Shown: one piece after another, positions 17,554-61,977 of the stretch
How the letters are laid out: every line of letters begins with the position of its first letter
Numbering within the stretch: the first letter of the stretch is position 1
Source of the DNA: Paramecium tetraurelia
Lineage: Eukaryota
Reading direction: 5' to 3'
NCBI GenBank assembly: GCA_000165425.1
Contig: CT868037.1
Location: forward strand, 1 to 64,000
DNA length: 64,000 nt
Translations under genes and position numbers: made by a program
Notes under the pieces: generated by a model
What the model was told of the DNA's origin: nothing
Database searches by the model: none
Seen by the model: only the letters and a program-made list of their open reading frames with translations

Positions 17554-20268
17554 ATGGATGACGATTTCTTATGTTAATACGATGGCCATGATGAAGATGA
17601 AATCCTTGGTTTCTGTCTGAATAGTAAATGCAAAGAAAATTCGCAATTTTGCTTGAAATGCTGTTGGGATAAACACAGCAGTCATGAAGAAGAATGCAAA
17701 ACATTTAAGCAAATATAGAAGACAATTGCAAGCAACAAAGTGCTGGAAGAAAAGCAAAAAGAATAGTTAGTTAACAAAATCAAAGAAATACAAAATTTGT
17801 GTGATCAAATTACTCACCAAAAGAACGTGGACGCTGTGAATTTGTAAGCTTTAGAGAAAGATTTAAAGGATAAAGAATATAAAAAATGCCTAGATCACAT
17901 TCCCCTTTTTAAACAATATTGTCAATATTTATAATCTAATTCACAATGTAATATACATCATTTCTATATTATTAGAGGTGTTATTAGATTAATTAGATTA
18001 AGGATTAAAATCACTTAAATTGTTCACATTAGGAATCTCTGCCATTTTGGAATAAACAAAAAGTATTCTTTAAATATAAAATAAGTATTGGACAACTAGA
18101 GTATTTCAATAAAATCTGAGATCATAAACCCAAACCAGAATGAGAAAAAACCAGCTCAAGTTGAAATTTAAAAAAAAGGTTATTCTAATATACATCAATG
18201 TAGATTAAGAAGTCTAAGTGAATATTGAATTACCAGCATAGACTCAAAAAAAAAATGAAATTGAAATTGTAGAGAATAAAGACTATGGAAAACCAGTAGG
18301 TTAAACAGCGTCTTCTAGAGTTGGATTACCACCTTAAGTACGATTTGTTTATATTCTAGTCACAACAACCTCCTTCTACCTATAATTATTAACAACCTTC
18401 TTCTGCTTAAGGTTATTAATAACCCAAACCATAGAATCCTTCTGCTGGTTAAAATTCATCCTCTAATATATACCCACCATAAGGTTCAAATCCACCAAAG
18501 ACATATCCACAACCAAATCAATATCAACAATAAAATCAATACCAACAATCGAATCAATACCAATATTAATAGCAAAATCAATATCAACCGCAAAATCCAA
18601 CTAATAAATCATATTAACCACCTACAGGATCAAGTTCTATAAATTCACAACCATATTAGCCATCTTCAGGATCAAGTTCCATAAACTAACAACCATATTC
18701 TTAGTAATCTGGCAAAGTCCCTCCTCCATAAACCAAACCCTATTAGCCTAGTTCAACAAATCCATAAAATTAATAGTATAAACCTCCAAATCCAAATCCA
18801 AATCAAACAGGTTAAAAAACATATCCTCCTCCAGGCACTCAATCATAAATACAAAAATATTAACCTTAAAATTCAGAATAAGGAAATTAAAAAATGGATC
18901 CTCAATAATTAATGAGTTTATTGGGTAGTAGCGGAAACGAAGGTTTAATGAAATAAGTAATTGAATATGCATTACAATAAGAAGTTAATAAAAATTCAAA
19001 GTATATAATTTATTAAGCTTAAGGAATGGTAATCAACCAGCCCCTAAAGTATAACTTGATATGGAACAAGTAAAATATTATCAGAGTTAAATAGAAGCTG
19101 AATAGGTTATAAAATAATGTAAGTATCATTTCCTAAATTAAGGTGCTGAATTATTGCAATAAGATAAATACAAGGAAACTCTGGACATAATCAATAAAGC
19201 AAATATCGGTATAGTTGTAGATAATGTTTAAATTTTATAAATCAAATGTATTTGAATTTCTGAATTTTAGGGAAATGCTTACTGAAAACGAATTAATTGG
19301 AGGATGCTCTCTAAATTTGTAATCAGATAATAGAGCTAAATCAAGACGATACAAAATTCTTGGCTATCAAAGGTAAAATGACTGGCGATCTATTTACTAG
19401 GATTGACTTTACATCAATTAAACAGATACGAAGAAGCCATGGAATTATTTGATATAGCTACTGAAATAAATCCAAATGAATTCAACGGCTATTTCCATAA
19501 AGGTTTATTGTGTTTTATATACCCTCATAGGATAAACCTTGCTATCATTGAAGAAATATGAAGAGGCCATCAAATGTTTTGAAAGAGCTATTGAAATTGA
19601 TCCTGAAAGTGAACCTTCATACTTTTTATTGGGTATTCAAAATAAAACATTCTAGGAAATGCATTAAAGAAATTGGAGAAATTCAATCAAGCTGTTGAAA
19701 ACTACAACATAACAGTTAACATAAACCCATAGCATCAAGTTGCCCTTACTTTTAAAGGTAAATATCACAATTGATGTTATTAGCTCAATGTCTAATTGAA
19801 TTAAAAGTGTATGAAGAAGCAATTAAAGCTGCAGATGCTGCATTGTCAATAAATGAGAATAATTCTCTTGCCCTATACTCTAAAGGTTACATATTTTTAA
19901 TATTTTAAGGACTTGGATTGTTCAAAGTAGAGGCTTTCAAAGAAGCTCTTAGTTGTTTGGAGAAAGCCATCTTAATAGATAATACTATGCACGAAGCTAT
20001 TGCCTTAAGAGGTTAATATCTTTTTGATTTTTAGGCGAAATACTCCATAAAATGGAAAAATATGTAGCTGCAGTGTCAGCATATGATTTGGCTCTCTAAA
20101 TATCCGCTAATCCTTAGTATATGTTGAAAAAAGGTATTTCAATTCTCAAAATTAAAAGCTGAGTCTTTACGAGCATTGGAAAAAGTTGAAGAGGCAGATA
20201 TTTTATAAAATTAAGCTTAATAGCTCATAGACTAATAAAAATAACCTTAGGAAAAATAAACAATTTGA
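17554..20268 (+). CDS. Protein with N-terminal Cys/His zinc-binding motif, Q/P/S/Y/N-rich linker and ~8 C-terminal TPRs
   Basis: MDDDFLCQYDGHDEDEILGFCLNSKCKENSQFCLKCCWDKHSSH; TPRs such as GLTLHQLNRYEEAMELFDIATEINPNEFNGYFHKG; nine phase-1 introns across the TPR region. Confidence 0.88.
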
Positions 20269-21233
20269 GGTGAGATATTTATAACAATAACCTATTAAAT
20301 TGAAATTTTTTTTTCGTCTTTGTTGTCAAGAAATATTTTCTTACTTTATAAAGGTGCTTCTTGCGAAGTGTTCTTCATTATATATTCAACTAAACATGAG
20401 TAAAATGATTATAAGGATAGTTCACTTGCTAAATATGCTAAAAATCTATCACTTTCTCAAATTCATCCCCTCATCTGCTTTAGATTGGTTTCCTTCATTT
20501 TCATTCGCACCTTCAACACAAAATGATCAAAATGTAATCTACCTGAATTACAATAAAAAAACATAAAAAGTAAAATGTTGAGAACTATATAATGATAATG
20601 GTTTTAAATTAATTAAGCCAATATGATCTAAATGATTAACTAAGTTGAAATTTAATTCTGTCTATGAAAAAAGAATCAATGTGATAGAATGATTAAATTT
20701 CTCATAAAATAAAATGGCACATTTAATAAAGGCAATTATTCTAAAATTTCAATAGCAAGATCATCAAATTGATATTTTGCAGATATATTAAATATTATTG
20801 TATAGATAAAGTATGAAATTAGAGGATCTAGAATAATAATATCTAATTTTAACATGTAAGGAATTAAGATATAGTTTATGTTTAATGATGATTTAGAACA
20901 AATTAATCGATTTCTATTGTTAAATTACTTATTTGAGTTTATACAAAAAAATATTGAAAATCTAATATAAATGTCCAATACAATATATATTTTTTAATAT
21001 TCAATAATTATATACACAAAAATGAAATGTTTATAATCTTTAATAAGGCATAGCTAAATAATAGACTATTCTAAATTGAAATTGAGTCTTGATATTTATT
21101 CATGTCATCCTATTTTATGTTAGACTTATGCATTTTAACTTTCTCATAGTAACTTGTGGGACTCTGTATACAATTCTTTAGAAATCAACATAAGTTAAGG
21201 AATAGCATCGTAAAATAAGAACCATCCGATTTT

Positions 21234-21815
21234 TCATCTGGTTTGAAACTTTCTAGAATGCAAATATGTAATTACTTTATTTGGAATTGAAAGTAGGTAT
21301 TCGGCATCATAATTTGATTTTTTTGAGAATTTTCAATTATTTATTGATTGACTAATTAGGGATGGAAAATATTCACTTTTCTATGAATAATATTTTTCCT
21401 TTATATTTTAATCCAATTTTTATAAGATCCACTATCTTGATTTTTTCTCGAGTTTCCACCTTAAAATACAAATTTTTTTACCTTTATTTAAAGTTGACTA
21501 TCTCTATGCTTTTTAACATGATGAAATTAGTCCATCGTCATAGTATTTTTATCTGCAACTATTCCTAAGCCTAATTTTTAAGAATTATTCTTACTCCTAA
21601 TCTTTCTTCGATTGCTTTTTGCTTCAACTTCATACCCTCCTGATAAGAGATTATTTCAACTCATTTGATATTGATGCAATTATTGAAGATAAACTTAAAA
21701 TTGAGAATTAAATACTTCCTCTACAACTAAGTCCCCTATAGGCTCATTTCCTTTTTCTTCTGCAGAAACTCACTCAACTCTCTTGATTCATAACAAAGAT
21801 TAAAAATTGGCGCAT
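21234..21815 (-). CDS. Hypothetical small multi-intron protein (or pseudogene)
   Basis: Starts MRQFLIFVMNQEELSEFLQKKKEM. An open frame needs about five 21-25 nt GT-AG introns. No recognisable motif. Confidence 0.3.
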
Positions 21816-22142: not shown

Positions 22143-25100
22143 ATGAAAATTATTTTAGTTTCACTTCTCATAGTGGCATCTTTTGCAAACGTTAACCGAG
22201 TGTTGTCTGAAATTAGCTAGACTAGCAATAAATGGCAATTCAATCTTTTTACCTCTACAGCGGAATAGAACAGCTAGACATACTTATTAGAGGGTGAAGA
22301 ATTGCTATTAGTTTAAAATATAATCTCTGGAGATGGAAATAATCAAATCAAAATGAACAAGTATTTAAGAGATGGTACAGAAATTACATCTCCAAAAATC
22401 ATTGGAGATTCAACAAAGGCATGCAGCAAAGCTAGAATCACCTTAATTCCTACGATTGGTTTTGTTGCCGGATGGATTCAAAAAACGGAATCCAGTTCAC
22501 AATTGTATCTTTAATTATTTACTAATAATTTAACTGCCTTAGGAGAATAAATACTGGTAAGTGACATCAGTCAAGAAGTACATTGGGATTTGTCATCAGA
22601 ATACTACTACATTTACAATTTAGGAAATTATTAATTATTACTGTTGTATAAATAAACAACTAGTGACAAATCATGGAGTGGTACAATCTATAACTATAAT
22701 TCACAATAGCGAAGCAGTGCAATTAAATTAAGCAACTCAAAATTTGTAGAAATAGCTTAGAACTCTCTTGGTAATTTAATATTAGTATAACGAATTTATG
22801 TTTCTGCTTTGAACTCATATTTAATTGCCACAAAAATAAATTAGAATGGTGAGATTGTTTACACTAAGAATATATACCACATAAGACTTTAGTCCTAATT
22901 TGAGCCTAGATTAGTTGCATTATCAAACAATAATTTTGTTGTGTTTTACCAACAAAGTGAATTCATATATTATCAAGTATACAACTAACATTTCGATTCA
23001 GTATTATTTGCTAGCTATTCAAAATATTATGGCTAATAAACCCCAACATGGGAATTCAACAATTTCTTCAAGGGTAGCCAAATTTAAGTATTGGCCTTGG
23101 AAGGAAGTGTAATTTTGGTTGGTGTTAATTACAATACTTTAAGATTTTAGTTGATTTAATTAGATAATGAATTTCTGGAATTCATACAATAAAGAGAAAT
23201 TCATTATGAGGATCTAAACATTTATAAATTTTCAATTTAAAAGACCAATGATGAAACTATATTTGTTTAATGGATTAGTGGAAATCCATTAACCTTATTG
23301 CCTGAATTTACACAAAGTCTCTATTAATCTGAATTGAATTTAAAACTGACTTTATCAAATTGTGCATTTAATTGTGATCATTGTGAAAACAATGTGTGTT
23401 AAAAGTGCAATAATGGATATGTGTTGAATAATAAGAAATGTTAATTATAATGCCAAACAAATTGTGTTCAATGTTCTACTAAAAACAGTTGTGATGTTTG
23501 TGCATCTGGATATGTTTTAAACAATAAAATGTAGTGTGTTAATCAAAGTAACAGTGCAAATACAGAATTGAAAGTCAGCATTTCTGAATCAACTTATAAA
23601 TATAACCAATAGGTCAAACAATTCCAAGATGGAAGTTTGCTAGTTTATTATTCAGAATATTCGACTCCATAATAGGTGTTATAATTTAGAGTATTATCAA
23701 GTGATGGAGAGATAATCTAAGCACATTAATTAAATTATTCAGGATGGGCAGGATATGATGTTGCATTAGTAAATGATACTACTGCTTATTTGTATACATT
23801 AGAGACTTCTGAGGGATCAACTGTTATCAAATAGAGACAATTCAATCCAAAAACCTTTGAATTTACAACTATTATCAGATTATAAATCTAAAATTAAGGA
23901 TTTTCTTATAGAAAAGATGTTTAAAACAACTTAATCGTTGCTGGATTTGAAAATTCAGTTTGCTTGATATTAAAAGGTATGGATAGTGGTGATAACATTA
24001 ATTTAAATCTTGGTTTTTACACATACAATGGAGAGTTTTTGATAAATCAAAATTTAGGATAAGTATAATTCTTATAGAACTACTCTTATAATGAAGAAGA
24101 ACGAAAATTTGATTACGATTTTGATGAATAATACTTGTATATTCTAATTGCAAGAGGATGCAGCCTTTAATTAGTGTAATTCAACCTAGTTGGATAAAGA
24201 GTATACGAAGAGAGTTTTGGATATGGTGGCTACGTATTTTGCTAAGACTTTATTAATCCATCTTTATCCAAGATTTCAAATAAATACAGGTTTATGATTG
24301 CAATGGAAACAGTCTAAGGCATAATTGTATTTAATTGGAAAGATTCAACTGTTTTATATACTACAGATTCTAAAGTTAAAGCCAGAAAACCATAATTAAA
24401 TGCTTTTAAAGACAATATCTTTGTTTTATTATTCGAGGAATACGACTTGAGTGATAGATTCACAACAATCTAGTATTTAAGATTTGAATTTACTGATGTA
24501 GTTGTTAATTAAAGTATTAATTCAAACTCTGTACTTCCTTAAAATTTGAAAACATTGAATTAAGATAATGAATATTTAATACTTAGTTGGTTGGCACATG
24601 GTTCTTCAAAAATCTCATCAACAAATCAAGTTTACTTAGAAAGAGTGTTATTGAATGACAATTTGATTGTTGGATTTGGAAAGTAATGTCCATCAAATTG
24701 TTAGAATTGCAATTCAGATAAAGCTTGTTTGTAATGTAATGAAGATTACCAATTAACTGCTGACTTGAGTAAATGTGTAGCACAATGCCCATAAGGTTGT
24801 GCAACATGTGCTACAAAAGATTAATGTTTAGTGTGTCAATTTGGTTATTAATTAAGTCAACTCAATGTTTGTGAATAATCTTAAAAGAATACTATTGCTA
24901 TCTTAAAGGAAAATACTCAGATATTTGATTCTATTGATTTAGATTTGGCACAGAATGGTAATTTATATGTAAGTTGGATGCAAAGGGATGAAAATAATAA
25001 TTAATAGACATTTATTAAATAGATTGATGTTCATGGATAGCAAGTAGGATAAGATATTTCAGTTAATGTATGTACCTAATATGCATCTAAAATATACACT

Positions 25101-28100
25101 ACATCTTATCTTAATATCCTATCAACAATTTGTGGAAATCTTGAATTTGGAGCAGATATGTATCTTCATTTCTATACTTCAAATTTTGACACAAGATATT
25201 AATTTTGGGTTGATCATGGAATCAGAATGATTTCATATTCAATTGGGGATACTCCATATGCAATTCAGGTTATATCTGAAAAAGAAGTATTAATTGCATA
25301 CTAAATAATGAATTCCGAAACTGAAGTATATGTTAGGTTTATTAAGTTGTGCAAACAGGATTTTGATAATTTATACTTTTATTGTGGTTCTAGTTAATTC
25401 GGACCTTTTAATTAAAAAGTTTAGGATTTGTAATTAGCCTTTGATTATTAAGTTTATTACATTAACTATAAAATTTTGGTACAGTAAGAAGATGGATCTA
25501 TTTAATTACAAACATTCAAAATTACTACTGATTTTAATTGCTAATAAGTGAATATCCTTTAGACATTTACTCTTAACTAGTAAACTCTTATATTATCCAA
25601 TTTAAATAAATTAGACCTTTCAATCAATAATGCTTAGATTTCATTTACTATCACACATGGTAATAAATAGCTAAATCAACATACAATTGAATTAAATAAT
25701 CAAAATTCTGATTTACAAATTGAGTAGGTTGACGTGGCTGCAACCGAATCAGGATTTTATGTTGTTTGGATTGAATAATAGTAAACAAAATAAATAAAAG
25801 CTTAAGGTTTTTACAATAATGGTACTTAGATAACTGAAATCTAAAATTTGATATAATCAAGTTACTCTCCAAGCAAGATATTTGTGTAATCAGTAAGAAA
25901 TAATTAATTAATTATTGTCTGGTAAGATTAGGATCAAAATGGATAGAAATTACTTGCAACAAGATATAACTAAATGCTTTAATTACTCCCTTTAAATACA
26001 GTATTATGTTAGTATCATTGTGAAAATTGTTAAGCAGCAAACAGTTGTGCTAAATGTTCTTAGGGCTATTACTATAATACTGATTAGTCATAATGCTAAT
26101 TAATTTGTCCTTCTTATTGCTAGGTTTGTACATAGAAGGACGTATGTGATATTTGCTAAACCAATTATTACTTAGTAAATGATCAATGTGTATATGATGC
26201 TCAAAAGTAAAAGGAAAGAGTTTTGGCTGATGTTGAGGATTCTACAGTTACAAGAGTATCTGTCAGTGCATTTTCAGATAATGGATTTGTTGTGGTTTGG
26301 AATGACAATGTTGATGGTAAATAACAATTGGTTATGCAAATTTACAATAATTTGAAAGAATAATAAAGATCTTTGCCATTAAGTGGTGAGAATGATAAAC
26401 AATATGCTTAAGTTGAGGTATTAGATGGAGATCTCATTGCCCTAGCATGGTTTGAAGGATAATGTTCAGTATCTTGTCGTCTTCAATTATAAATATTTGA
26501 TAGATTTGGAACAATTCAGTCAACTGAAATAACTATAGCCTTTGTGACATTACCATCATTAGGTAAGCAAAAGCCTGTTGTAATCAAAAGATTTGATAGA
26601 AAGTTAATTATTGCATACATAACATATGAAAATGGAAAGACAGTTGGTTATTCTACTATGTATGAGTAAGATTCAAGTTCAGTATAAGCTAATCAATTAA
26701 TAGATCCAGACCAAAATATCGATAATTTAAATATCATTAGTTTGAATGGATATTATCATGGTATTATGTATGTGAGAAACAACAAAGAATTGTATATTCA
26801 TCATACTTTTCAAAATGGATGTTTCTAGGGTTGTGGATATTTTGATGGAGCTTAATTAATGATCTCTTCTGACTATTAAATTTCATAACCTTCTGCTTTC
26901 TTGAGACAAGACAACTTTTTCATTGTGTTGTGGGTGGAAAAATCAGCAGTAAATGGATTTTTAATTGAAAAGACTTATCAATCTCGTTGTTGGAATTGGG
27001 GTTGTGATGGCAAAAAATAAGTTTCCTCTAATTAATTTGATGAAACATATTTACCCTAATCGGTTGGCTAATATCTTTAATATGGATATTAGAGATATTC
27101 CATAATTTATGGATCTCAAGATTATCCAAATCATATTAGAAGAACAATAAAATTATAGTCATTTAATGATTATTATCAAGGAATGGATAAAAAGCTTTAG
27201 ATTAATGTAGTATCCTAAAAGATTGAGTAATTTGTTACTTATGAATTTTAAAATGGAGATGTGCTTGTAATTAGTGTTGGATAAACAAGTGAATCAAGTA
27301 GTTAGATTCTATTGAATTTAGTCACTGTATTAGGTGATTAATAGAAATTAATGGGTAATCCTACTTGTTAATAACGTTGTTAAAGATGCGATGCAAGTCT
27401 AACATGCTTTAATTGTAATGCAGGCTATACATTAATTGATGGTTAATGTTTGAGATAATGTGATAAAAATTGCGCTGTATGTGATCGTCATTGGGAATCA
27501 GCTATGTTATAATGTAATGAATGTGAATTTGGATACAAATTAAATAATTTCTAATAGTGCTTGCCAACTGATACTACTATTATTCAATCCTTAATTAATA
27601 CTTATTAGAGTGGAAATCAATATGGTCAAAGAATAGCCACCTTAAGTAACTATCAATCAGTAGTTGTCTGGAATAGTGAGAATCAGGACAAGAATGGAAA
27701 ATCAATCTATATGCAACTATATGATTAATAAATGAATAAGATTGGCGGTGAAACACTTGTTACTAAAGATAATATAGGAGTATAAGAGGAACCAGATGTT
27801 GTGGCATTACCTAATAATCATTTTATTATTATTTGGAAAGACAATCATTCAAATGCCGGCAGAAGAATCCTTATGTAGAGATTCTCATTAGCATTTGAAA
27901 GACTTGGAGATGAAATAGTAGTTTATGATTCCACTACTGATATTATTTCAAATTTGCAATCTCTAGTGAATTACGTTGATGTACATCATAAGATTACTGT
28001 GTCATTAGATGGTTCAATATTCGTGTTATTGTACTTACAGCAATCATATAATATTTTTGACATAAGATTTAAACAGTTTAATTCAAATTATGAAGAATAT

Positions 28101-31100
28101 TCATCATTATCAATTTGGCAAACTACATCTTATTAACAAACTTCAACATCTACTTTAAATAATCTATTATTATTTACATTCAAATCATAAGAGGGAATAA
28201 GAGTTTTCTTTATTAATTAATTAGGATCAATTGTAAATAGATTGTTAATACCTAATTCCAAATCATATAGTTACCCATCAATTATTTCAATTTCTGAAAA
28301 TGAAATATTAATTGCTTGTGTAGGCTCTAAACTTAGTTAATTATTAGTTTACAAATAAAATCTAGATTTATCATCTACTTTAAGTCCATAAATGATTGAT
28401 TTCAATAACTAAATAACAGATGTAAATTTGTTGAATATGAATTCTGGATATGTCATAGCATTTAAATAATTAAATTAGACACCCTATTACTAAAGTGATC
28501 TAGTTAACTTATTGATATTTAATAGCCTAGGGGATGTGTTATCATCTGATCCTATTTAAGTAAATGACTATTATGGATCTACAACAGATATTCGATTAGC
28601 TCGTTTATCAAATGATGATTTCATAATAACTTGGACTCAAATAATTAATTCATCCTATGGAGTTGGATTAATAAATCAAAGAAATATAGATGATTTAAGC
28701 GGAGACGGAGTCTATGTTAAGAGATATAACGTAGCTGGTTAGGTTTAATCAATTTAAAATGTAGTATGTCAAAGTTATTGTAAATAATGCAGTAAATCAA
28801 ATTTGTGTGAAGCATGTATGGATGGCTATCAATTTGATTAACAAAAATTGATATGTTTGCCAATATGTTAATCTCATTGTAATTAATGTACCAGATTTTT
28901 GGGTTAATATAAGAGTTATTGTTAATAATGTGCAGAAGGTTACACAAACAATGATTAAGGAGATTGTGTCAAAGTGCAAGAATAATAAATTTAGTAACTT
29001 TATGAACTTTATGGAGATTATGTGGTGAGTCAAATTTTGACATTATCAAATGGAAATATCGTGATTCTGTATTAAGCGAATGGGGGAGATAAATATTTGA
29101 TGAACATAATTGATAGTTCAGGTAAGGTTGTTTTAAAGGGAAATGAATTAACCCTTTCATGTTGTAGAAAATTAACCAAAGCTACAGCATTAACAGGTGG
29201 TAATTTTGCAGTTATTTAAAGATCCTTTGATGTTGTTGTGGAAGGATTTTAGCTATTTGTTTACGATTAAGAAGGTAGATTAATTAAATAAGATATATTA
29301 TACAATCCTTACTATTGGGGTTATCCTGAATTTTGGAGAAATTAAAATTTATTACAAATCAACTCCCTTTCAGATGGAGGATTTGTTATATTGTTTGTTT
29401 CAAATAATGATGGTTACATATCTTCCCAAAGTCCAAAACTACATTTAAGAATCTACAACAAAGAATATTATCTTGTTAAGTAAGATATTGTAATTTAAAC
29501 TTATTTCAATAGAAATGAATAATGGGATTATTGGAACTATGATTATGTTTACAACAATCAAAGAAATCAAGCGATTCAAGTATTAGAAAGTGTAAATTCA
29601 ATTATAATTTCATTTGGAACTAGCATATATAATAAATGGGAAGAAAATAAAAATAATATTTAAGTGTTTGTTTATAGTAAAGAGGGATAGTTCATATTAA
29701 ACAAGGCTATAGAAATACCCAATAATGATTGGTGGGTAGGATATACTCCTAGAATCAATTTATTTGAAATAGAAATAAATAAATACTTATTGGTCTATTT
29801 CAATAATAGATAAGTCTATGGATAATTTTATGATTAAAAGTTTAACCTATAGGTTGAGAAATCAATAAATTTAGAATCTCTAGGTGGATTACACTGTTAT
29901 GGATGTTGTATTGGATGTTGGGATTAAATAACAAGTTAAGTGGCAGTAGTTAAAAATGTGATTGTTATTACAAATAAGCCTAATGGCCAGGATCTATATA
30001 TTTCGGCTTACAATCTGAATTTCAATTAAATTGTTTCTCCATTCAAAATATCAAATAATAAATACGATGCAACAGATTATTTGAGAAACCAACATTTCCT
30101 TGTAAATTATTAACTTGAGACCTTATTACTTGCTTAGGTTGTTTAATTTAAAGGAAGCAGACTAATAATGTTTAATAAATTAGATAAAAATTGTAATATA
30201 ATAAAACAATGGACATCTTGTGGTGAAAATTGTATAGATTGTGCAGAGAACAATTAATAATGTCTAGAATGCAAGAGTGGATACTTTGTAGATGAAACCT
30301 AAAAATGCAAAAAGAGTTGTGATATCTAATCTTGTTTATTGTGTGAAAATCCTGGATAATATGGAGGATTTTGTAGAATTTGTTAAGCAGGATATTAATT
30401 GAAGGATAATACTGAGTGTGTTCAGGTTGATAGCTCAAGAATATAAGAAACTAAACTTTCATCAAGTAATCATTAAGCTTAGAATACTCCGAGAATTAAA
30501 ACACTTTTAGATGGTAGAATACTATTAATTAGTTTAAACTCAAATAATAAGATTATTGGATAATTCTATGATTCTTAAGGAAATCTAAGTGGAGATTAAG
30601 TTACATTATTGGAAGAAGAAGGAATTAATCATTTTGACTTTTCAGTATCTAAGACTGAAGATAAAATCGTATTAGCTTGGGTAAGTTATAGAAACTGGAA
30701 TGCAAAATCACTCAAATTTAGCATAGATCTTCAATCAAAAATCACAGAATAATTAGTAATTATAGACTAGGTATATTAATATAGTATCTCATAAATCACA
30801 GTGGAATTTTTATAAGATAATTCCTATGTGTGTGTTTTATATGGAAATGGATAAAATTGGATAAGAACTGTGAATGAATTTGATTAATTGAATTGTTTTA
30901 ATCAAATTAATTCAATCAATTAATGGTTTTGTGATAGATGGGGTTGTTATGATCAGAGCCAATTTTATCAAGCTTAAAACCGATACATAGATTATTTCTC
31001 TACAAGTTATGAGAGAGAACCTAGCATCTTAACAACTTAGAATTATATTGTATTGGCATATGTAGAGTATAGTACATTAGTTTTAAGAACCTATGATAAC

Positions 31101-34100
31101 TATGGAAATGTCTAATATGTTTTTAATAATTAAAACATCAACTAAAATGAATTCAGATAACCCTATTAACCATCAGTTACTTTATTAGAGAATGGCAAGA
31201 TCGTCATCGTGTGGAAGGATGTGATGGAAACCTACAATATAGCAACATATGAATAATAAGTTCCAAGTTATAAATAAACTGTGATAGCATATATGATTAC
31301 AGATGAATAATTTAGAGATGCTAAGGTACAATATATAGGAATGGATTATATATAAGAAGAAAGACCAGATGTTGCTGCCATTTCTAATGGATTTGCCATA
31401 TCTTGGTCAGGTAGAAGTGAAAGGAATAATTAGAATATCGATCTTAGAATAGCATACTTTGATCTATATGGAAATCTTTAAACTGGATTTATACCTGTCA
31501 GTTCAATTTGCAATAGACCAATTAACTCTTAAATTAATAAAATAGCTGATGGTTCTATACTTGTATCTTGGTACCAAGATTAAGACATCTATGTTTAGAA
31601 ATTAGACAGAAAGGGAGTTATATACCCTTTACCATAACCTATTGGATGTTCTTGGTTCTGTTCTAAATGTAATTAAGAAGGTTGCCTAGAATGTTTTGCA
31701 GGATATGAATTGAATCAGGTTAAAGAATGTCAAATAATTGTGCCAAAATGCAATGTTGAAAATTGTTAAGTTTGTGAATACGGATGGAATAGATGTATGT
31801 TATGTAATGAAGGATATTTCCTTGAAGATAACTTTGATCATTGTACATTGATAGATGTACCAAATAAAGAGTATAAGTTAGCTCATTCTAATGTAATTAA
31901 TGATCATTCTACATCTATTGTATCAGTTGATGATGGAACTATTATCCATTTATGGTTAGATACTAATGATGATGGTTATGTCTTAAAGGGATCTACATAT
32001 ACCTAATTTGGAAGTTAATCAATAGCTGATAAATTAGTCTATTTATTACCAAAAGATGTATTTATTTAAGTGAAATCATAAAATTCTAATGTGGTAGTGT
32101 TAATTTATAATGCTGAATTCAGTTAAATTTTAATTGTTAATGTTAAATTGGAAATTGTAAAAGACAAAGTAGATATTACAAGTATCATAAAAGAAGAATT
32201 TATAATTTCATATGAATGGTAAAAGTAGAATTTAGAGACATTTAATGATGGATTCGTAGTAGAAATAACAGGAGTTAGATAATAGGTTATTAATCAATTT
32301 GATATCAATCCAGAAATCAGAAAATGCATGGTTGTTGAAACACTTGTTTTCAATTTTAACATTGAATTAACTACTCAACCTTTTGGATTTTATATGGAAG
32401 GATAACCTTCAACAGGAATTGTAGATTCTGTTAATAATTGCAAAATTACAAAAGTCTTAGATGTTCTTTATGACGATTATATCTATGTAGTTAGTTATCA
32501 ATATGATCTTTATAGATAATCACTTTAAGTTTATAATTACAGAGGTGAAAAATTAAAAGAAGTTTGGGTGAATCAATAGGTTCCGTGGTATAGTTATGCT
32601 GACTATGATGGCTAAAGATTGTTCAAATCCTAAGATGGCAAACTATATATAACTGGAAGAGAGGGAAAGGGAATAATTTTAAACATCGAAAATTTCTAAT
32701 TTTTAGAATTTCTTGATTACCCCTTACTAAGCAATTATTGCATAGATTATAGAGTAGTTAGGTTTTTATACTCTTAAGAGTTGATATTAGGATAATAAGT
32801 ATTCGGTTTGGTGTCAAGATGGAAATATTCAATCTTCAGGCTTTGGGATCAAGGATTTGTATCTAAATTTGCAGTCCAATAGCAATCATTTAATATATTA
32901 GAATTAACAGACGGATAGCTATTATTCAGTTGGATAGAAGCATCAAATAACTCTAATAAGGGATCTATTTAGATTGTGAGATTAAATTAGAGTTTCCAAT
33001 TAGACATTTTCTAGAGATTCGCATGTTTACCTAATTGCCAATAATGTCCAAATGATAATACTTGTGATATTTGCAATGACCATTATGAAAATATAAACAA
33101 AAAGGAATGTAAAGTCATATGTCCAAACTTATGTGATACTTGCTAATATCCTTAGAGTTGCACTATATGTTAAGATGGTGCCTATCTTAATGATTAAGGA
33201 GAATGCTACATACCAAATGATGGAAACATTGAAATTCCAATTCCCATAAAGAGATCAGACAATTAGATTAATCCAAGAGTGGCTTCATTCAGTGATGGCA
33301 GCTTTGTTGTAGTTTGGTAGGCTGAAAATCAAGATGGAGATGGTTATGGAGTTTATGCATAAAAATTCAATTCTTTGATTGAAAGAATAGGTGATGAAAT
33401 CAGAGTTAATGAGGTTGTTCTTAATGAACAATATTATCCTGATATCACAATTCTTGATAATTCGAATGTAATCATAGTGTGGGCTGATGGGCAAATTGAA
33501 TCAGAAGCAACTCTGTATTATTAGAGATTTGATAAGAATTTAGTAAGAATTGGTGGTCCTGTCATCCTTGATAAAATAAAAGTATAGTATATATAATAAT
33601 ACGACACTCCTTTTGTTGTGCAAGCATTACCTTAAAATAAATTTGCAGTTTGTTGGGTTAATTTTGCTGATTGGAATTCAAATTTCTATGTTACTTTGAT
33701 TGACTCAAATGGAGTTTCACTAAATTCTTATGTATGGAATAGACCAGATTAAGTAAGGGAAATTGCGATAGCATCAAATGGCCTCAACTTTATTGTTTTA
33801 ATAAAATAAACTTGTCATCTAATATCAAATATTTTTAATTTAGAAGGATAATTTTAATACGAAAAATATATAGATTTTGCTAATTCCTGCAACGGTGCTT
33901 CAGGAATAACCGCTAATTCTAGAGGAGAATACATAGTGTCATTTATTGAAGCAGATTATGTGAGAGTGAGCATATATGATACTCAGTTTAACTAATATGG
34001 CAGAAGTTCTAAAATAGAGGATTCGGCTATTGATACTATTGCTGATAATCCAGATGTTATTGCCCTCGATGGTGATAAAATCGCTGTTGTGTGGTAAAAT

Positions 34101-37100
34101 ACTGATAGACTTGATCCAATATTTAAATCAAGAAAATTAAAGATGGTGATCTTAGATTATGCTTTAGTTGCATTAACTTCAGTCTAAGAAGTAAACTTAA
34201 TAACTACATTTGCATAATTACCTTAACTTTCACGATTGAACAATAACCAATATGTGGTTGTTTGGTAAGCAAAGAATTAGAAACCAAATGTTGATTCGGA
34301 ATATGGAATATATTTAATGAGATATAATTCAAATGGTGATTAAACTAATCCAGGTGTTCCAATTTGTCCAGATAAATGTGAAAAATGCCAAGAATCAACT
34401 ACATGCATCAAATGCTTACTAGATTACGACCTTGTTGATAAGGAATGTAAACCTAGATGTCCTGTAAACTGCTAATATTGTAATACATCCAACATTTGTG
34501 ACATATGTTTACCAGGATTTGAATTGGATGTGGTTGGTCATTGTATTTACATTACTCCAGATCCTATTCCTTATCCAGTTCCTATGCCTGAATATCCAAG
34601 TAAAGTAAATCCAAGCTTCAAATCTATTCAGAAATTCGGAGATACATCAGTCTTAATTTACGGATCATCTCTAATTCAAGTTGATTCAAAATATTATCTA
34701 GATATTAGCTTAATTTTAATCAATGATAGTAGTAAGGCTTAGTTACCTTATAATAACAAAATAGAAATTGATGGAGAATGGGCAAATGTTTATAACTCTG
34801 ATATACTAGTAATAGACTAAGAGATAGTAATTTATTGGACAGAACATTCTTACAGTGTCAAATAAGTGCACTTGAAATAAATTAGATTAGATTCAAACTT
34901 AGTTTCTTAGGGATCAGAAACTATTGACACATTTGATTTTGATTTCAGCGAACATACCAATAGAAAAGTGTATCTCTTTGCTTTAAATGGAAGTTATTAT
35001 ATATTCTAGTCTATTCAATATATCAATGGATAATTTGAACTTTATGGACATATAGTAGATAGACAATTGTACACAAGAGCTCCTCCAAAGAAATTGATGG
35101 ATACTTTTAACTAACTTAATAGAAATTAGATTCATTACATCAATAATGAATTTGTAATAACCTAGTACACAATGATAATATTTTGGCGGAAATTCAACAC
35201 AAATTTAGGGGATTTGGTTGAAGGTAGTACTTGGCCAATTTTCAATGGAGATATTGATTACAGTTCAATCATCATTCAATAATTAACAAATACAAATTTC
35301 GTCGTTGCTTGGAGATCTAAGAGTCAATAACCATAAAGTTCTTCCAATTCAATTAAATACATGAATCTAGGTTTAGACTTTTAACCAATAAGTAGTGAAA
35401 TAACTGTTGTCACATCTAATGATGTTTTATAGAGCCCATTCATTGTAGTAACAACTAGTTCCTTCTATGTTATTTGGAATTAGGAATCAGTTGTGTCTAG
35501 TATTCTAAATTGCAATTAGTTTTCTGAAAATGGAGGACCAGCACTAAATACAATCCAAAAATTGAACAGATTATAAAATAATGTAATATTCTACACAGGT
35601 ACACAAATTACTGGTGAAGATATTTATGTGATTTGGATTTCCTATTAAGATACAACATTAGAATATCAATATCAATTGGTAAAGATTGGTCCTCAAGGAC
35701 GCTTACCTAATCCAATTGACCCCCTCCCTGTTTGTCCAACTGGTTGCAATGTTTGTTAGAATGAATACTCATGTGGACCAGGTGATTGTCTCCCAGATTA
35801 TATTTATGATATTATCACACACAAATGTGTTATGCCTTGTCCATCTAATTGTAAATAATGCTCTTTACCGGGATAGTGTAATACTTGTGATGAAGGATAT
35901 AAATTAGTTAATCATCTTTGTGTTAAAAACGTTTGTTAAGCTGGATGTGAACTTTGTGATGAAGCCCAACTTTGTTTCAAATGTCCTCAAGGTTATGAGA
36001 AAGTAGATCAATTCAAATGTAGATATGCTTGTGATGTAAATTGTGAAATATGTGGAGAAGATAAATGTACTCAATGTAAAGAGTCCTATTATTGGAGTGA
36101 AAAAGATAGACTATGTGTGGATATAACCATATACATCTATTAGACAACTAAGGAGAAACCCCTAAAGGCAGTATTTGAGTCTAAAGATTATGTGCTTATG
36201 TGGTATGAGACTGGAGCCACTGAAGGAATTTACATCTAATTATATAGAAGCAACGGAAAACCAGTAGGCAGACCAACAAAAGTAAATGAACAGGATCTTT
36301 TGGGAACTAGAAGATTGCTATAATAGTCAAATAGTTTTGATGTTAGATTGTTTGCTGATTTGGCAGCTATAAAGAATGAACTAGTAGTCTTGTGGGTTGA
36401 TCAGACTCAAGGTGATATGATGAAGCTTAAATTCAGAAAATTCGATAGTAATACTACCTAGATGTCTGAAGAAATTACTATAAAAGAATAGCCAAGATAA
36501 AATTTAACAAGTATGGCAGCTCCCTGTATAATTAAACCTACAAAAAATAATTAATTTGTTATTGGTTGGTTTAATTAATAGGCTTAGAGTTTGTAATAAA
36601 CAGCAACCATGTTCATTTAATCCTATAGTTCTGAGTTGAAACCTATTGGTGAATTGTCAACACTATTGAATGCTGATTACACGTCTGTTCCCTTGATTTC
36701 AGCATCTGAAAATGGAGAAGTGTTTATCACTTATACAAGTCAAGGATATACTTATTTAGCTTAAATGTCTCAAGATGGTTTCTAACTTGGTGATCCAATC
36801 CAAATTGCATAACCTTATCAAACCATAAAATCATCAAATTTGGATGATGGTAGTATGATATATGTATTTGAATCAAAGAGTACAAATGTATCACCTCCAT
36901 TGTTTGTCTTATAATATCAGATTTTGACCTTGGATAAGAAGTTGAACGAACCCCAATTATTGACATCATAATAATATGGAGAATAATAACCAGATCTCCT
37001 GAAAATCAATAATGGATTTGTGATCACTTGGAGAAGTGTAGATAAAACATTCAAGTCTCAAGATGTCTATTTCTAAGTGTTTGATAATTCTGGAAAAATG

Positions 37101-37907
37101 AAATCATTACAAATTAAAGTTGACAGACAAGGAAATCATCCATAGAATCCAAGCATTCAACTCTTAAAAAATAATAATAATAGTAATAGCGATGAGTTAG
37201 TGATTACATGGATAGCTGAAAGTCTAGAGGATCCAACTGTAAACACTATTTTTAGTAAATAATTCAAATTATCAACCATTATAATTGATCCATAAACACC
37301 AGTCTGTTCATCAAAATGTCTATATTGCGAAAGAAATAACACCTGTATGACTTGCATTCCAGGATATTACACAGTAAATGATCAATGTGAGATTGATTGT
37401 CCTATCAATTGCTAATCTTGCTCAAAGCCATATGTTTGTGACAAATGTGATCAAGGATATCAATTCACTGCTGATAATCAATGCGAATTTGTTGTTGCTT
37501 GTGATGCAGGATTTGAATTAAATGATGAAAATGAATGTGTTCCCATATGTTCTGATAACTGTCTAGTTTGTCAATCATAGACATCATGTTTAGAGTGTTC
37601 TGCAGATTATTACTTAACTAAAGGAATCTGTTTACAATCACTTGGTGATATTACAGCCTCCATGAACCAATCTAACCAAGGAATGCCTATATATGACATA
37701 ATTGTCATTATAGTTGCTTCCTTATTGTTCATAGGATGCCTATTTTATGTCTACAAACGTCATTAGAAGAATTTAGCCAAGCGCGAACATGGATAATAAT
37801 AATTAGCAAATCAAGTAGAAGATAGTAATAGAGTTCCATAGTAGACCATGATACATTCAGAGTTCACGGTTAATAGAGGTTAACCAGACAATTTATAATT
37901 TGATTGA
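22143..37907 (+). CDS. Giant type-I membrane/surface protein (~5,254 aa): 11 beta-rich domains alternating with furin-like Cys-rich repeats
   Basis: Signal peptide MKIILVSLLIVASFA. ATG to TGA spans 15,765 nt (a multiple of 3), and track ORFs at 27954, 31797 and 34524 lie in the same frame. CxxC clusters recur every ~1.3-1.5 kb. A single TM segment IIVIIVASLLFIGCLFYVY is followed by KRH and a short tail. Confidence 0.9.
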
Positions 37908-39041: not shown

Positions 39042-39074
39042 GAATGAATTAATAAAATTAAAAATTCTAATTTT

Positions 39075-41975
39075 AAATTTGTTATGTTATTTAATAATGA
39101 TTCAAAATTCAATTTTCTTTTTTGAAGGAAGATATTTTTGTAAAATAGCTTGAGTAAAGAACCCTATTAAGGATGCTATTACAACAACAGCTATCATAAT
39201 CCAATTATACCCTTTGAATCTAGAAATATAATAAAATATTGTTACGCATTATCATTGACATTAATCAATTTAGCCCATTTTCCTCCTTTTGGAAAGATAG
39301 CAGAAACAAAGAATAGAATAAAACCTAATATTGTCCATAAAAGTAATAGGTAGTTTCTATAGTATCTTTATTTGAAAGGATTGGAAATGTACAAGTTGAT
39401 TGCAAATGTCATAAAGAAGAACATCAAACTCATAAACATTACTGATTAAATATCTCCAAATTTTTTTAATTCTTCAATTGGTTTTGGAATACAATTATCA
39501 ATTGGTTCATCTATTTCACATGTATGAACATCTCTAACTGCTGTTGAAATGAAATAATTGACAATTAAACTAATTTAAATAAATATTATGTTAATACCCT
39601 GCTACTCCCCAAATTAAATTATTAAATATTTAAATTTGATTATAAATAGCAAATTAATCATCTAATGGATTATATTTAGCTAATGTATCACAAGGACCAG
39701 ATAAACATAAAAATATTAATAAGGGAATATTTGATATAATGCTTGTATAAGTAAATTGAAAATCTGCAAAGGTTTCTGCTTCTAAAAAGGTAAAGAGTAC
39801 AGCTACAAATTTCAATGTATTAACACTGATTTAATATTAAAAGACTTCAATAATAGTCATGGTAGCTGCTTTGCCTTATAATAATACTTTAACAACACAA
39901 TCTAATGAAGTAGATTTACTACTGAAAGGAGCAGTATATGAGGCATCAGCTTCACTAAATGAAATTCCAACTTAAGCCTATGAGATAGCTGACTAAAATG
40001 AATTAAATGAATATAATTACACAATCATTAGCTCCATCTCCACACATTAATACTTATCTTCCAAAACTTTGAATTATTTGAATAATTAATTTCTTTTATT
40101 CAGGTTTTTAACGAGCAAATACCTTAGTTTTCTTAATAATTGAGATAGTCAATTGTCCAAAAGATCCGTCGTCAATATCAATTTGATTAATTTCAGTAAA
40201 TATCTTTTCCTTGCTTTAAGACTTAACAAAAGTGCTTGATGAATACTTAGGTTCTACGAAAAAGTTGCCTTTATTTGTCATAAATTCTAAAAATTTGCCA
40301 GTTAAAGCTAATTCTTATTGAGTTTATATAAATGATTCTAATTCTTAAATACTATTTGGTTATTATTCTTTAATTATTTATTGATTGTTATTACATTAAA
40401 GTATAATTTCTTAATTTTATTAATTATAATCTAAAAATGTAATTTCATTATCTGAATTAATAATACCAGCTAACTTTCCACATTAAATAGTTGTCAAAGG
40501 ATTATCTCCTGATATTACTTTAATATCTAATCCTGATTCTTTTAAAGTTGTAATGATTTCATTTGTATCTGATTTTAATGGGTTCTCCATAACTAACAGA
40601 CCAACAAAGTTCAACTATGATTCTAATTACTCTCTTTATTAATCAATCTAATTTGATTATAATTCTTTGTAAGCTAATCCTAGGACTCTATAACCTTTAA
40701 TAGCATTCAAATTGAATTCTTCAATTAAATCATCTCTTTTCTTGATTGATATTGAATTAATTGATTCAGGAGAACCTTTTGCATATAAATAGTATTTAGA
40801 TCCATCTGTTACAATAACACTCATCATTGATTTTGATGAACTAAAGTCAAATATCTTATGAATAGTATAGGTTTTTCCATTTCCATCAATTGTTAATGGA
40901 TTATTATTGAAGTTACATTGCCAACCTACAAAATTAAGCATTTCAATTTCTAATGGATCTCCTAATAATTAACCATTTATTTTAATTAAATGATGACAAC
41001 AACCCATAATAGCATCTAAAATAGGTTTTTCTTCTTCTGGAAATGCTTTAATTGCTTTAAATCCTAAAGTAGTAAGAGTTCCTGTTTTATCAAAACAACA
41101 AGTATCAATTCTACCAGCTGATTCTACTTTATCAGCATTATTTCCAATAACTCCTTTAGCTTCAAGTCTAACCAAACTTGCAGTCTTGCAAATTTAGAAG
41201 AAAATAGGCATTGATGGTGGAATTGACCAAACTATATTATCTAAGAATCTCAATACTAAAAGACTTGATTTGAATTCCATCGGAATGTATTCAATCAATA
41301 GGAATCCATATATAATTGAAGTAATAAATGCTATTTCAATTATGAATTTAGCTGCCTAAATATAAAATCTCATTGATGGAGGCTCAGGAAATAGTACATT
41401 TCTAAAATATTAACCTCTAAGGGATGTGAAACCAGTTCTAAGTACAATGGCTATATTTTGCTAAGCATTGTTAACTTAAATTAATTTAGTTCCTTCAAAT
41501 AAACAATGTTAAGACATTTTTTCAAGTTCAAAAAGAGAATTTTGATTAGGTAATGCAGATTTAGGAATAGGAATACCTTCACCAGTTAAAGTGGCTTCAT
41601 TAACAATAACATCACCTTAAATGATAGCACAATCACAATTTAATGTTTGATTATCTTTAAGGATGAGTAAATCACCAGGTAAAAGATCAGCTCCATTAAT
41701 CACTTTAATTTAATCATTTTCTTTAATTGATACTTCTTAATGTATATTAGCCAATTATTATAATCTTCTTCTTGATCTAACATATAAAAAGTAATTCAAA
41801 TAGACTGTTAAAACTGTGAAAATCAAGATCAGGACAGGTTGAAGTACTGTTTTCTCTGCAAACCATATTGCAACAGCAAAATATTATAAAATATTGAATG
41901 GACCTGTAAATGCATGCAAAGAATAAATGAATATAGATTCTATTGGGATCTTAAGTTAACATGTTCCAAAATATT
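39075..41975 (-). repeat. Left arm of a ~2.9 kb inverted repeat (partner 57254-60158)
   Basis: The reverse complement matches the second ATPase almost base for base, including introns and the start of the 3' UTR. Track ORFs 40969..41175 and 58054..58260 are identical. Confidence 0.95.
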
Positions 41976-42435
41976 TAATGTTGTGTTCTCTGGTTTGCTT
42001 TGAACTTAGGTTAATAATATCGGTCAAAGTCTTACCTTTTATTTCAAATTCAATTGGTTAATAAAATTAGCCTGCACTATTAAATGAATACTTTAGCATT
42101 CTATATATTTTTTAAGAGAGTACTTAAACACGAAATAGGGTTTATCAAACATAATTTTTTTTTTACAAACAAATTCTTCTCCAGAAGTCGCTACTATTCT
42201 ATAATGAGTTGCAATCGATTCATCAGAGCAATCAATGAACAGAAATAATTAATAAAGCTTTTTGAAGTATTTCAAGGCCAAGGCAAATAAAAATGCTGTT
42301 GAAATAGATAAGAGAATCTAATTAAAATTATATTGATACTGCCAAGAAGATTCTTGCTTTACTTATTCTAATTGGCTGGATTTGGGATAGGGGATGTTGC
42401 CCTTCAACAAATGAGTTTTAGACTGGAAATGGCAT
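39102..42435 (-). CDS. P5-type P-type ATPase, copy 1
   Basis: VNEATLTGEGIP, LRTGFTSLRG, IPPSMP, CFDKTGTLT, KGSPE, ISGDNPLTT, FARQKPEQK and MCGDGANDC motifs. N-terminus MPFPVQNSFVEGQH. TGA at 39104-39102. Confidence 0.93.
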
Positions 42436-48891: not shown

Positions 48892-48918
48892 ATTAATATA
48901 AATGATTCATAGTTCAAG

Positions 48919-51780: not shown

Positions 51781-51808
51781 TTTATAATTTGAATAATATT
51801 TTAATGTA

Positions 51809-59700: not shown

Positions 59701-60130
59701 ATGTTCATACATGTGAAATAGATGAACCAATTGATAATTGTATTCCAAAACCAATAGAAGAATTAAAAAAATCTGGAGATATTTAATCAGTAATGTTTAT
59801 GAGTTTGATGTTCTTCTTTATGACATTTGCAATCAACTTATACATTTCCAATCCTTTCAAATAAAGATACTATAGAAACTACCTATTACTTTTATGGACA
59901 ATATTAGGTTTTATTCTATTCTTTGTTTCTGCTATCTTTCCAAAAGGAGGAAAATGGGCTAAATTGATTAATGTCAATGATAATGCGTAACTATATTTTA
60001 TTATATTTCTAGATTCAAAGGGTATAATTGGATCATGATAGCTGTTGTTGTAATAGCCGCCTTGTTAGGGTTTATTACTTAAGCTATTTTACAAAAATAT
60101 CTTCCTTCAAAAAAGAAAATTGAATTTTGA
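56792..60130 (+). CDS. P5-type P-type ATPase, copy 2
   Basis: Same motifs as copy 1 (IPPSMP, DKTGTLT, GDGAND) with conserved intron positions. Divergent N-terminus MSYPVKNSDIEGQH. TGA at 60128-60130. Confidence 0.93.
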
Positions 60131-60158
60131 ATTATTATAAAATAACATAACAAATTTA
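57254..60158 (+). repeat. Right arm of a ~2.9 kb inverted repeat (partner 39075-41975)
   Basis: Near-identity begins at TATTTTGGAACATG (57256, matching 41973) and extends ~28 nt past the stop codon. Confidence 0.95.
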
Positions 60159-61566: not shown

Positions 61567-61977
61567 TATTTATATAAAATAGAATTTAAATAAACAATAC
61601 GAAACAAGGGATGAGGATAACTTATTATATCTAATATTAACAATCTGATATAATAATTTATAATCCCCAAAAATTACTATCTTTATTATAATAATATAAT
61701 GAAGTTAGATGACTTCCCTTCTGTTATTAATTTATTTTCAACTATAACTTAGTTTTGTATAGATATTAGCTAATTATTCTTTTTAACTTGTATTATGAAA
61801 AATTAATAAGATATGAGCATTATTTATAAAAAGAATTTAAATGTATGTATTTGTCATAAATGGTTAGATTATTTGAGATTGAAAAATTGTGATTTATTTA
61901 TAATAAAGAGTATTTAAGATAATAGGTCAATTGATTAATTAATTAATATAAATATAAAAATCTGATATATTTCTTAG

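Follow-up and report, generated by a model that had tools for sequence, protein, structure and literature searches.

A 5,254-residue Paramecium membrane protein predicted to carry repeated beta-propellers related to a prokaryotic repeat domain

Introduction

Among giant cell-surface proteins, LRP1 and LRP2 (megalin) carry six-bladed YWTD propellers, LDL-A repeats and a cytosolic tail with an NPxY endocytic motif. A eukaryotic surface receptor may also be built around a module of bacterial origin, as in the teneurins, whose domains and topology are unrelated to those considered here. Among seven-bladed propellers, the PLL, PHL and CV39L lectins bind their ligands between blades. To our knowledge, the receptors by which ciliates recognise or select food bacteria, symbionts and predators are largely unknown. 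This study concerns a giant gene of Paramecium tetraurelia at positions 22143–37907 of the forward strand of contig CT868037.1 (assembly GCA_000165425.1), analysed within the first 64,000 bases of that contig, referred to here as the window.

Several Cys-rich surface proteins of alveolates have been described. Paramecium surface antigens have an eight-Cys periodicity throughout (PF01508; PMC4235209). The mating-type proteins mtA/MTA-MTB have a terminal furin-like domain and five transmembrane (TM) helices in about 1,500 amino acids (aa) (PMC7786109), and the CRMP proteins have a core of two EGF-like domains and about nine TM helices (PMC9815656). According to PMC9788069, nothing is known of the expression, location or function of the transmembrane Cys-repeat proteins treated there.

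The giant gene is real, expressed and conserved, and has so far been named only by automatic annotation. From its sequence, the product is a single-pass type I membrane protein with 11 modules, each consisting of a beta domain and a CxxC linker. It is tentatively read as a megalin-style multi-ligand capture receptor or adhesin that is regulated and cleavable.

The gene and its product

Translation with table 6 gives a single frame of 5,254 aa, while the second-longest frame in the window has 1,036 aa. The terminal TGA is the only one in the coding frame, compared with 85–271 in the other five frames. Translation and hydropathy thus bear out the first-pass annotation, which had proposed an open reading frame (ORF) of this length with 11 modules, a TM helix and a short tail; in-frame TGA stops splitting the gene, a possibility that it had raised, were looked for and none was found but the terminal one. 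An origin of the frame by bacterial contamination, by chance or by fusion of several genes is almost certainly wrong. The stop-to-stop frame reads through 351 TAA/TAG codons, none acting as a stop, and the TAR share of its Gln codons (0.71) is like that of neighbouring genes (0.44–0.76). Full-length orthologues in four other species and sense-strand poly(A) reads, both described below, also speak against such an artefact.

Eleven beta-rich domains (B1–B11, 378–417 aa) alternate with CxxC clusters (C1–C11) of two units each, except for four units after B10 and three after B11. The earlier description of beta domains of about 350–420 aa followed by CxxC repeats was accurate, and the clusters start within about 10 bases of the positions first given (23361, 24687, 26007, 27366, 28767, 30219, 31647, 33024, 34365, 35733 and 37305). 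Its furin-like label for the Cys repeats did not hold. No furin-like model matched at E ≤ 1 in a Pfam scan of the protein, and the sole signal was that of VSP-type Cys repeats (PF03302), with 76 bits in the N-terminal half (cut-off 31.4) and 24 bits in the C-terminal half. Cys makes up 3.6% of the protein and is restricted to the 11 clusters. There are 22 NxS/T sites, and hydropathy identifies two hydrophobic segments only, at the N-terminus and at aa ~5183–5204. No direct DNA repeats were found within the ORF, which suggests that the modules are old.

The propeller repeat and its predicted fold

Searching with B9 gave 110 protein matches (best E 9.8e-58), which cover up to 98% of the domain at 20–26% identity; the nine with organism names were all bacterial. 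In a second search of proteins of 2,889–9,195 aa, six of the 81 matches were from Paramecium, including the protein itself, and every other organism-named match was bacterial. The prokaryotic homologues contain a repeat of about 55 aa in domains that span about 385 aa, like B9, with up to nine such domains per protein. Tandem runs in 335 non-ciliate proteins number 1,255; of these, 582 contain exactly seven units, and run length peaks again at 14, 21 and 28. A hidden Markov model (HMM) of 190 repeat units scores the first blades of B5 at 41 bits and of B9 at 52 bits, where the best of 30 shuffles reaches −0.5, and it finds weaker units in B1, B3, B4, B7 and B11. In profile-profile comparisons (hhalign; six sequences per profile, the contig C8 paralogue left out), seven of the ten other domains link to B9 at P ≥ 90.

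By these sequence comparisons, B5 and B9 share true homology with the 7 x 55-aa repeat domain of prokaryotes, and homology to a B9-type propeller covers 8 of the 11 domains. The first-pass annotation had likened the beta-rich domains to a repeat of large secreted bacterial proteins on the basis of two peptides, both of which are present (aa ~1818, nt ~27594; aa ~3707, nt ~33261). This resemblance is strong only in B5 and B9, is weak in B1, B3, B4, B7 and B11, and is not apparent in B2, B6 and B8. A period-4 duplication scheme (B1/5/9, B3/7/11) was also considered; B5, B9 and B11 align with most domains and so do not single it out.

The AlphaFold2 model of B9 (pLDDT 90.3, pTM 0.92) most closely matches CylK, whose propeller has seven blades (Z 38.0, rmsd 3.0, 352 aa aligned). 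All other matches have Z ≤ 28.6 and include the seven-bladed PLL/PHL/CV39L lectins (Z 27.7–28.6), sialidases and lyases. A model of B10-C10-B11-C11 built from 11 ciliate rows alone is nearly all-beta, and its B11 matches propellers at Z 15–18. These models support the view, put forward with the first description, that the beta-rich domains are beta-propellers, with B9 and B11 as modelled. Three points count against extending it too readily to the whole protein. The B9 alignment has 60 prokaryotic rows of 70, so the predicted fold leans on them; the ciliate-only model is of moderate confidence (mean pLDDT 63.7, pTM 0.40); and B2, B6 and B8 show no clear kinship to B9 (hhalign P 39, 43 and 0).

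The match to CylK raises the possibility of an ecto-enzyme array, in which some propellers would be catalytic, by CylK-like alkylation or by sialidase- or lyase-like glycan cutting, and would digest bacterial surfaces. The gap between CylK and the next match and the presence of sialidases and lyases among the fold matches fit this idea, which is nevertheless improbable. Catalysis by CylK needs Arg105, supplied by an N-terminal calcium-binding RTX-like domain (PMC8916777), and that domain is missing here. The family profile does not retrieve CylK by sequence, and across ten B5/B9-type domains W, F and G are the sole invariant residues. Binding is likelier than catalysis, because lectins are the nearest folds that are not enzymes and the prokaryotic relatives occur in adhesin-like settings at the cell surface.

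The prokaryotic propeller constitutes a very large family, found in giant adhesins and flagellin clusters, for which Pfam and NCBIfam have no model. A ciliate-built profile matched 27,641 representatives at E ≤ 0.001, the best 150 of which were listed. No Pfam or NCBIfam model exceeded its cut-off for the repeat with eight prokaryotic and two ciliate queries. Weak matches to CopC, GH43 and PDIAV were below cut-off and were rejected; for the PDIAV lipoprotein model (NF053835), B9 scored 21.9 bits and the prokaryotic homologues at most 40.9, against a curated cut-off of 90. Sequence searches of the PDB with B9 and with profile A2 gave no significant match. Atlas clusters of the prokaryotic homologues are unnamed, with BNR families at 0.78–0.86 as leads (prokaryotic queries only).

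The prokaryotic repeat co-occurs with cadherin, Ig-like, PKD, RTX, dockerin and secretion-tail domains. The Atlas clusters of one member (P0018) include flagellins and metallophosphoesterases, which suggests a mobile surface module. Another, the seven-repeat protein P0006, matches PEF-CTERM weakly, at 17 bits against a cut-off of 23, a hint of archaeal carriers. No description of the Paramecium family or of the prokaryotic repeat was found in the literature covered, which leaves out most subscription papers, and the identifier of a paralogue does not occur in the supplements examined of PMC3091696.

The features of the giant gene are as follows (window coordinates).

22143–37907 (+): whole ORF, 5,254 aa plus TGA, table 6; predicted type I membrane protein
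22143–22196 (+): putative signal peptide (hydropathy 2.04 over aa 3–21, not a dedicated predictor; conserved in orthologues)
22197–22211 (+): R-[VI]-L-[SA]-E motif, candidate processing site (9 of 11 N-termini; missing in the contig C8 and C153 paralogues)
22209–23360 (+): B1, 384 aa, probable propeller (hhalign to B9 P = 93; one repeat unit of 9.9 bits)
23361–23537 (+): C1, two CxxC-pair units (Cys pattern)
23538–24686 (+): B2, 383 aa, beta domain with no demonstrated kinship to the others (best hhalign P = 72, B7; P = 39, B9)
24687–24872 (+): C2, Cys cluster (Cys pattern)
24873–26006 (+): B3, 378 aa, probable propeller (P = 96, B9; P = 94, B5)
26007–26189 (+): C3, Cys cluster (Cys pattern)
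26190–27365 (+): B4, 392 aa, probable propeller (P = 98, B9; unit of 12.5 bits)
27366–27560 (+): C4, Cys cluster (Cys pattern)
27561–28766 (+): B5, 402 aa, propeller with bacteria-like first blades (units of 41.4, 16.4 and 10.0 bits; P = 100, B9)
28767–28967 (+): C5, Cys cluster (best VSP stretch)
28968–30218 (+): B6, 417 aa, beta domain with an internal CxxCCxxC (P = 84, B1; P = 43, B9); repeat units of 8–11 bits only in C435-type paralogues
30219–30419 (+): C6, Cys cluster (Cys pattern)
30420–31646 (+): B7, 409 aa, probable propeller (P = 98, B9; P = 96, B11)
31647–31844 (+): C7, Cys cluster (Cys pattern)
31845–33023 (+): B8, 393 aa, most diverged beta domain, no demonstrated kinship (best P = 11; 0 to B9)
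33024–33206 (+): C8, Cys cluster, not to be confused with contig C8 (Cys pattern)
33207–34364 (+): B9, 386 aa, predicted seven-bladed beta-propeller, most bacteria-like (sequence search, repeat HMM, AlphaFold2, fold matches)
34365–34544 (+): C9, Cys cluster (Cys pattern)
34545–35732 (+): B10, 396 aa, probable propeller (P = 90, B9; modelled mostly beta at moderate to low confidence)
35733–36116 (+): C10, Cys cluster of four units (29 of 128 columns invariant)
36117–37304 (+): B11, 396 aa, predicted membrane-proximal propeller, best conserved between paralogues at 32–45% (ciliate-only model)
36309–36320 (+): RRLL, aa 4723–4726, candidate protease site in a flexible B11 insertion (R-R-x-L in 12 of 12; loop pLDDT < 50)
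37305–37631 (+): C11, Cys cluster of three units and a short spacer unit (Cys pattern)
37689–37754 (+): single predicted TM helix (hydropathy up to 2.77)
37755–37907 (+): predicted cytosolic tail of ~50 aa plus stop, charged, without NPxY or a tyrosine motif

Transcription

Expression was assessed from 4 of 24 sequencing runs, aligned as one Logan contig (X5) and as raw reads (X21, X22, X23). The X5 contig spans 22158–37887, or 15,730 of 15,765 bases, with no gaps and one silent difference, and depth in this run is zero across the 2 kb upstream (19801–21801). The run amounts to 28.6 million letters, less than half the genome, which fits a transcriptome; its RNA label is the tool's guess. The other three are stranded oligo-dT runs of one study, with sense-strand, 3'-biased reads that in X22 reach all 30 bins of the gene. 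No splice joints were found in the raw stranded reads, where depth over the 5' half is mostly below 1 and the flanking genes, which also yielded none, provide no positive control. Together with the ungapped X5 contig, this agrees with the intronless gene first described. Apparently, one unspliced transcript is made.

Depth in the last full bin of the gene is 50.2 in X22, 1.26 in X21 and 1.33 in X23, while the flanking gene depths are 7.2, 10.4 and 3.2, respectively. The 3'-end depth of the giant gene thus differs about 40-fold between the coded samples. All four aligned runs have T>C at window position 37523, silent at Asn 5127, which may be a strain difference or an assembly error.

Paralogues, orthologues and the possibility of a coat

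The genome (72,094,543 bases, 697 contigs) was searched for paralogues with B9, B11 and B1. Paralogous loci occur on contigs C435, C8, C105, C153 and C509, giving at least four loci. The C435 paralogue, an open frame of 5,227 aa, has 34% identity and the same series of 11 modules; its product is 100% identical to the P. tetraurelia protein P0133. On contig C8, an open frame of about 5,010 aa is 24% identical and again has the same 11 modules. The C105 locus is 90% identical in DNA to C153 and 82% to C509. The C153 and C509 loci, ending and beginning at contig edges, could represent a single gene that the assembly broke in two. The C105, C153 and C509 paralogues have one additional B9-B10-like pair, and single-base breaks interrupt their frames, through error or decay. 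C105 and C509 also agree at 96–99% in their downstream flanks. The same searches revealed no recent near-identical duplicate of the giant gene.

Full-length orthologues exist in four sibling species, P. primaurelia (78%), P. sonneborni (67%), P. pentaurelia and P. octaurelia, all annotated merely as 'EGF-like domain-containing protein'. The 11-module layout is fixed across paralogues and species. This paralogue family with its fixed layout goes beyond the first-pass annotation, as do the differences in expression and the RRxL site whose conservation is considered below.

Between paralogues, B2–B10 are 16–37% identical and B11 32–45%. Such fast divergence of B2–B10 would suit a structural coat or spacer, in which the protein forms a long shed surface filament of a glycocalyx, of cilia or of an oral or stress-stage coat, and the propellers serve largely as inert mass that gives protection from predators, toxins or killer particles. 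The 22 NxS/T sites, the unconserved tail and condition-dependent expression, as surface antigens have (PMC10143506), point in the same direction. This alternative is rather unlikely, as paralogues and species alike preserve the identity of each position, the ORF lacks direct DNA repeats, unlike the tandem repeats of i-antigens, and expression looks modest in two of the three raw-read runs. For the capture receptor, position-specific divergence suggests that each propeller has different ligands.

Origin of the propeller

Sixteen ciliate domains were placed with 55 of prokaryotic type and 3 from marine contigs in a quick IQ-TREE tree with a midpoint root. The ciliate domains form one side of a branch with SH-aLRT 100. 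They sort by module position rather than by gene (B5 with B5, B11 with B11, B9-types in two groups), indicating that the layout is older than the paralogues and that positions have not been homogenised. By these comparisons, the propeller was probably acquired from a prokaryote, because a huge family with uniform blades stands opposite one degenerate eukaryotic clade and the gene is intronless. In the available part of bioRxiv 2024.09.14.613017, prokaryote-to-Paramecium transfers of glycan enzymes are reported and propellers are not mentioned.

A competing account is an older eukaryotic or virus-borne module, missed by the searches in other eukaryotes. The marine metagenome contigs L035:1-7155 and L037:1-7173 bear on it, with open frames of more than 2,380 aa in which a seven-unit propeller occurs with Cys-rich linkers in a modular arrangement. 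These frames also hold Kelch/NHL/BNR or FG-GAP/RCC1/PAN repeats. A word-based search missed even the contig C8 paralogue, and only the best 150 of the 27,641 profile matches were listed. All of this detracts from the certainty of a bacterial origin, as does the ciliate clade itself, which has a long branch and an unusual composition and no donor in the quick tree. A long branch, a differing composition and a midpoint root mean that the tree shows neither donor nor direction.

Other observations make an older eukaryotic or viral source unlikely. Every organism-named match outside Paramecium is bacterial among the matches listed, and the marine-contig copies fall among the prokaryotic rows, away from the ciliate clade. 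None of 330 screened proteins besides the six from Paramecium has a ciliate-like make-up. Among further scans, a B11-profile search of proteins of 693–2,000 aa gave 11 matches, none ciliate-like by name, which is weak evidence. A metagenome scan found four loci, none of them ciliate, and a viral scan with one prokaryotic protein gave no match; BFVD viral matches were generic propellers at 8–14% identity and were rejected. A GTDB scan returned one locus, its patterns being ciliate-specific and hence uninformative on range. The horizontal origin that was first suggested is likely, with the reservation that the tree is unrooted, no donor appears and diverged eukaryotic copies are poorly picked up by the searches.

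Candidate processing sites

An R-R-x-L motif occurs in the B11 insertion of all 12 sequences, as RRLL in ten and RRFL in two; these sequences are related and represent perhaps four independent lineages. The surrounding loop residues are variable, the chance of RRLL is about 0.02 per protein, and in the two-module model the site lies in a loop with pLDDT < 50. Following the signal peptide, R-[VI]-L-[SA]-E is present in 9 of 11 N-termini. The consensus RX(L,V,I)Z given for S1P (bioRxiv 2023.03.28.534447) accommodates both RRLL and R-[VI]-L-[SA]-E, as do apicomplexan RxL/RxxL motifs (PMC8401336). Cleavage at RRLL within B11, together with N-terminal trimming, is slightly favoured on this sequence evidence. 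Three results tell against it. RRFL, at 2 of the 12 sites, is outside the strict S1P consensus; the RRLLQ-type DNA pattern is not enriched genome-wide (65 versus 67, 52 and 59); and the S1P domain PF23090 had no match in the genome, in a search whose control was uninformative.

A candidate cut site inside the best-conserved, membrane-proximal domain may also be viewed in terms of a contact or mechanical sensor. A pull by a ligand would free the cleaved ectodomain from the B11 stub and a partner membrane protein would signal, for example in trichocyst discharge, mating or avoidance. The logic is likened to that of Notch and adhesion GPCRs. In related alveolates, contact sensing is a role of Cys-repeat membrane proteins, namely the CRMPs (PMC9815656) and mtA (PMC7786109). 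Such a sensor is conceivable but unlikely, since the giant protein has one TM helix rather than nine or five, and the Pfam scan and tail comparison identified no kinase, cyclase or conserved cytosolic motif.

Proposed mechanism of a capture receptor

The tentative reading as a capture receptor may be considered as a series of steps. The ancestor of the P. aurelia group, or an earlier one, is likely to have acquired one prokaryotic propeller, joined it to a ciliate CxxC linker and a TM anchor, and multiplied the module. A protease of the secretory pathway would, with a slight balance in favour, trim the N-terminus and cut RRLL in B11. The cut would leave an ectodomain of about 4,700 aa held non-covalently on a membrane stub of about 530 aa, from which shedding or release would be possible. 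Disulfide-stiffened CxxC linkers may hold the propellers off the membrane as a string, each position having drifted to its own binding surface, so that the string would capture different glycans or proteins. Captured targets could be food bacteria, particles or macromolecules, at the cell surface or along a feeding or endocytic path. The gene would be switched on under particular conditions, which is shown only as a difference between coded samples.

Several observations temper the likeness to megalin. While the top eight Foldseek matches of the two-module model are LRP2/megalin, their TM-scores are 0.13–0.18 and DDB1 and Utp proteins score nearly as well; the megalin matches therefore show tandem propellers only. 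On inspection of its sequence, the tail has no NPxY and no tyrosine past the TM edge. It is 63–71% identical among orthologues and 10–20% among paralogues, a low conservation that speaks against a conserved megalin-like endocytic cycle.

In a more far-reaching and doubtful version, the eleven diverged propellers would be a panel of microbial-glycan sensors, detachable by the cut in the last propeller. Prey or symbiont recognition would then have a release switch, in a megalin-like family that Paramecium made independently from a horizontally acquired bacterial propeller, itself from a family so far undescribed and comprising over 27,000 sequence clusters. The system lends itself to study as a small family (at least four loci) with separable domains, in a laboratory model where knock-down is feasible, and with one sharp prediction, the cut at RRLL.

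Genomic neighbourhood

No cluster of surface genes surrounds the giant gene within the window, as judged by Pfam. Neighbouring genes include TauE (2331–3422), a kinase (9200–11998), WD40 (15234–16850), P450 (42745–44196), a second kinase (47503–48906), SHIPPO repeats (51809–52771) and PIG-X (60568–61566). A 1,036-aa open frame at 48919–52029 (−) is E/K/Q-rich, with short beta-like repeats and no Pfam match. Two inverted copies of a 3,258-base segment, 94% identical (39074–42324, −, and 56906–60158, +), each contain a P-type ATPase gene. A Ku80-like gene (Ku_N, Ku, Ku_PK_bind) at 61966–63999 (+) extends past the window end.

Comparison with known systems

Paramecium surface antigens (i-antigens, PF01508) and TM antigens are likewise large, Cys-containing, regulated and encoded by gene families. 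The giant protein differs from the surface antigens since PF01508 does not match at E ≤ 1, Cys is found in 11 clusters rather than periodically throughout, and a TM helix with a charged tail of about 50 aa takes the place of a GPI signal (by hydropathy, not by a GPI predictor). With mtA/MTA-MTB and the CRMPs, which are alveolate recognition proteins, it shares Cys-rich repeats beside a membrane anchor; it differs from them in its one TM helix, its 5,254 aa and its predicted ectodomain of 11 propellers. The judgement in the first-pass annotation that neither the i-antigen nor the mtA architecture fits is thus upheld.

The prokaryotic 7 x 55-aa propeller proteins have near-uniform blades flanked by cadherin, Ig, PKD or RTX modules. 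In contrast, the Paramecium protein is membrane-anchored, with degenerate blades and with CxxC linkers between its propellers. CylK (PDB 7RON), a cyanobacterial alkylating enzyme, is the closest solved fold to B9 and is also seven-bladed, but identity by structure alignment is 11–13% and profile A2 finds no CylK at E ≤ 10. Unlike CylK/BrtB, the giant protein has no RTX match, and a CxxC cluster rather than a calcium-binding RTX-like domain precedes each propeller. The PLL/PHL/CV39L lectins are seven-bladed like B9, but at 10–13% identity and with scores tied with other propellers. Propellers are not mentioned in the available part of bioRxiv 2025.04.24.650466.

The closest parallel in layout is with LRP2/megalin and LRP1, which are likewise giant single-pass proteins with repeated propeller and Cys-rich modules and a short tail. 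The giant protein has no YWTD or LDL-A Pfam match at E ≤ 1, its B9 matches seven-bladed folds, and its tail lacks NPxY. It is thus laid out like megalin, as an analogy of how it may work and not as a member of that family. A known kind of architecture appears here to be built from an undescribed prokaryotic domain, for which we infer both the function and the direction of transfer; the giant gene is a candidate example of a megalin-like layout reached convergently with a part of bacterial origin.

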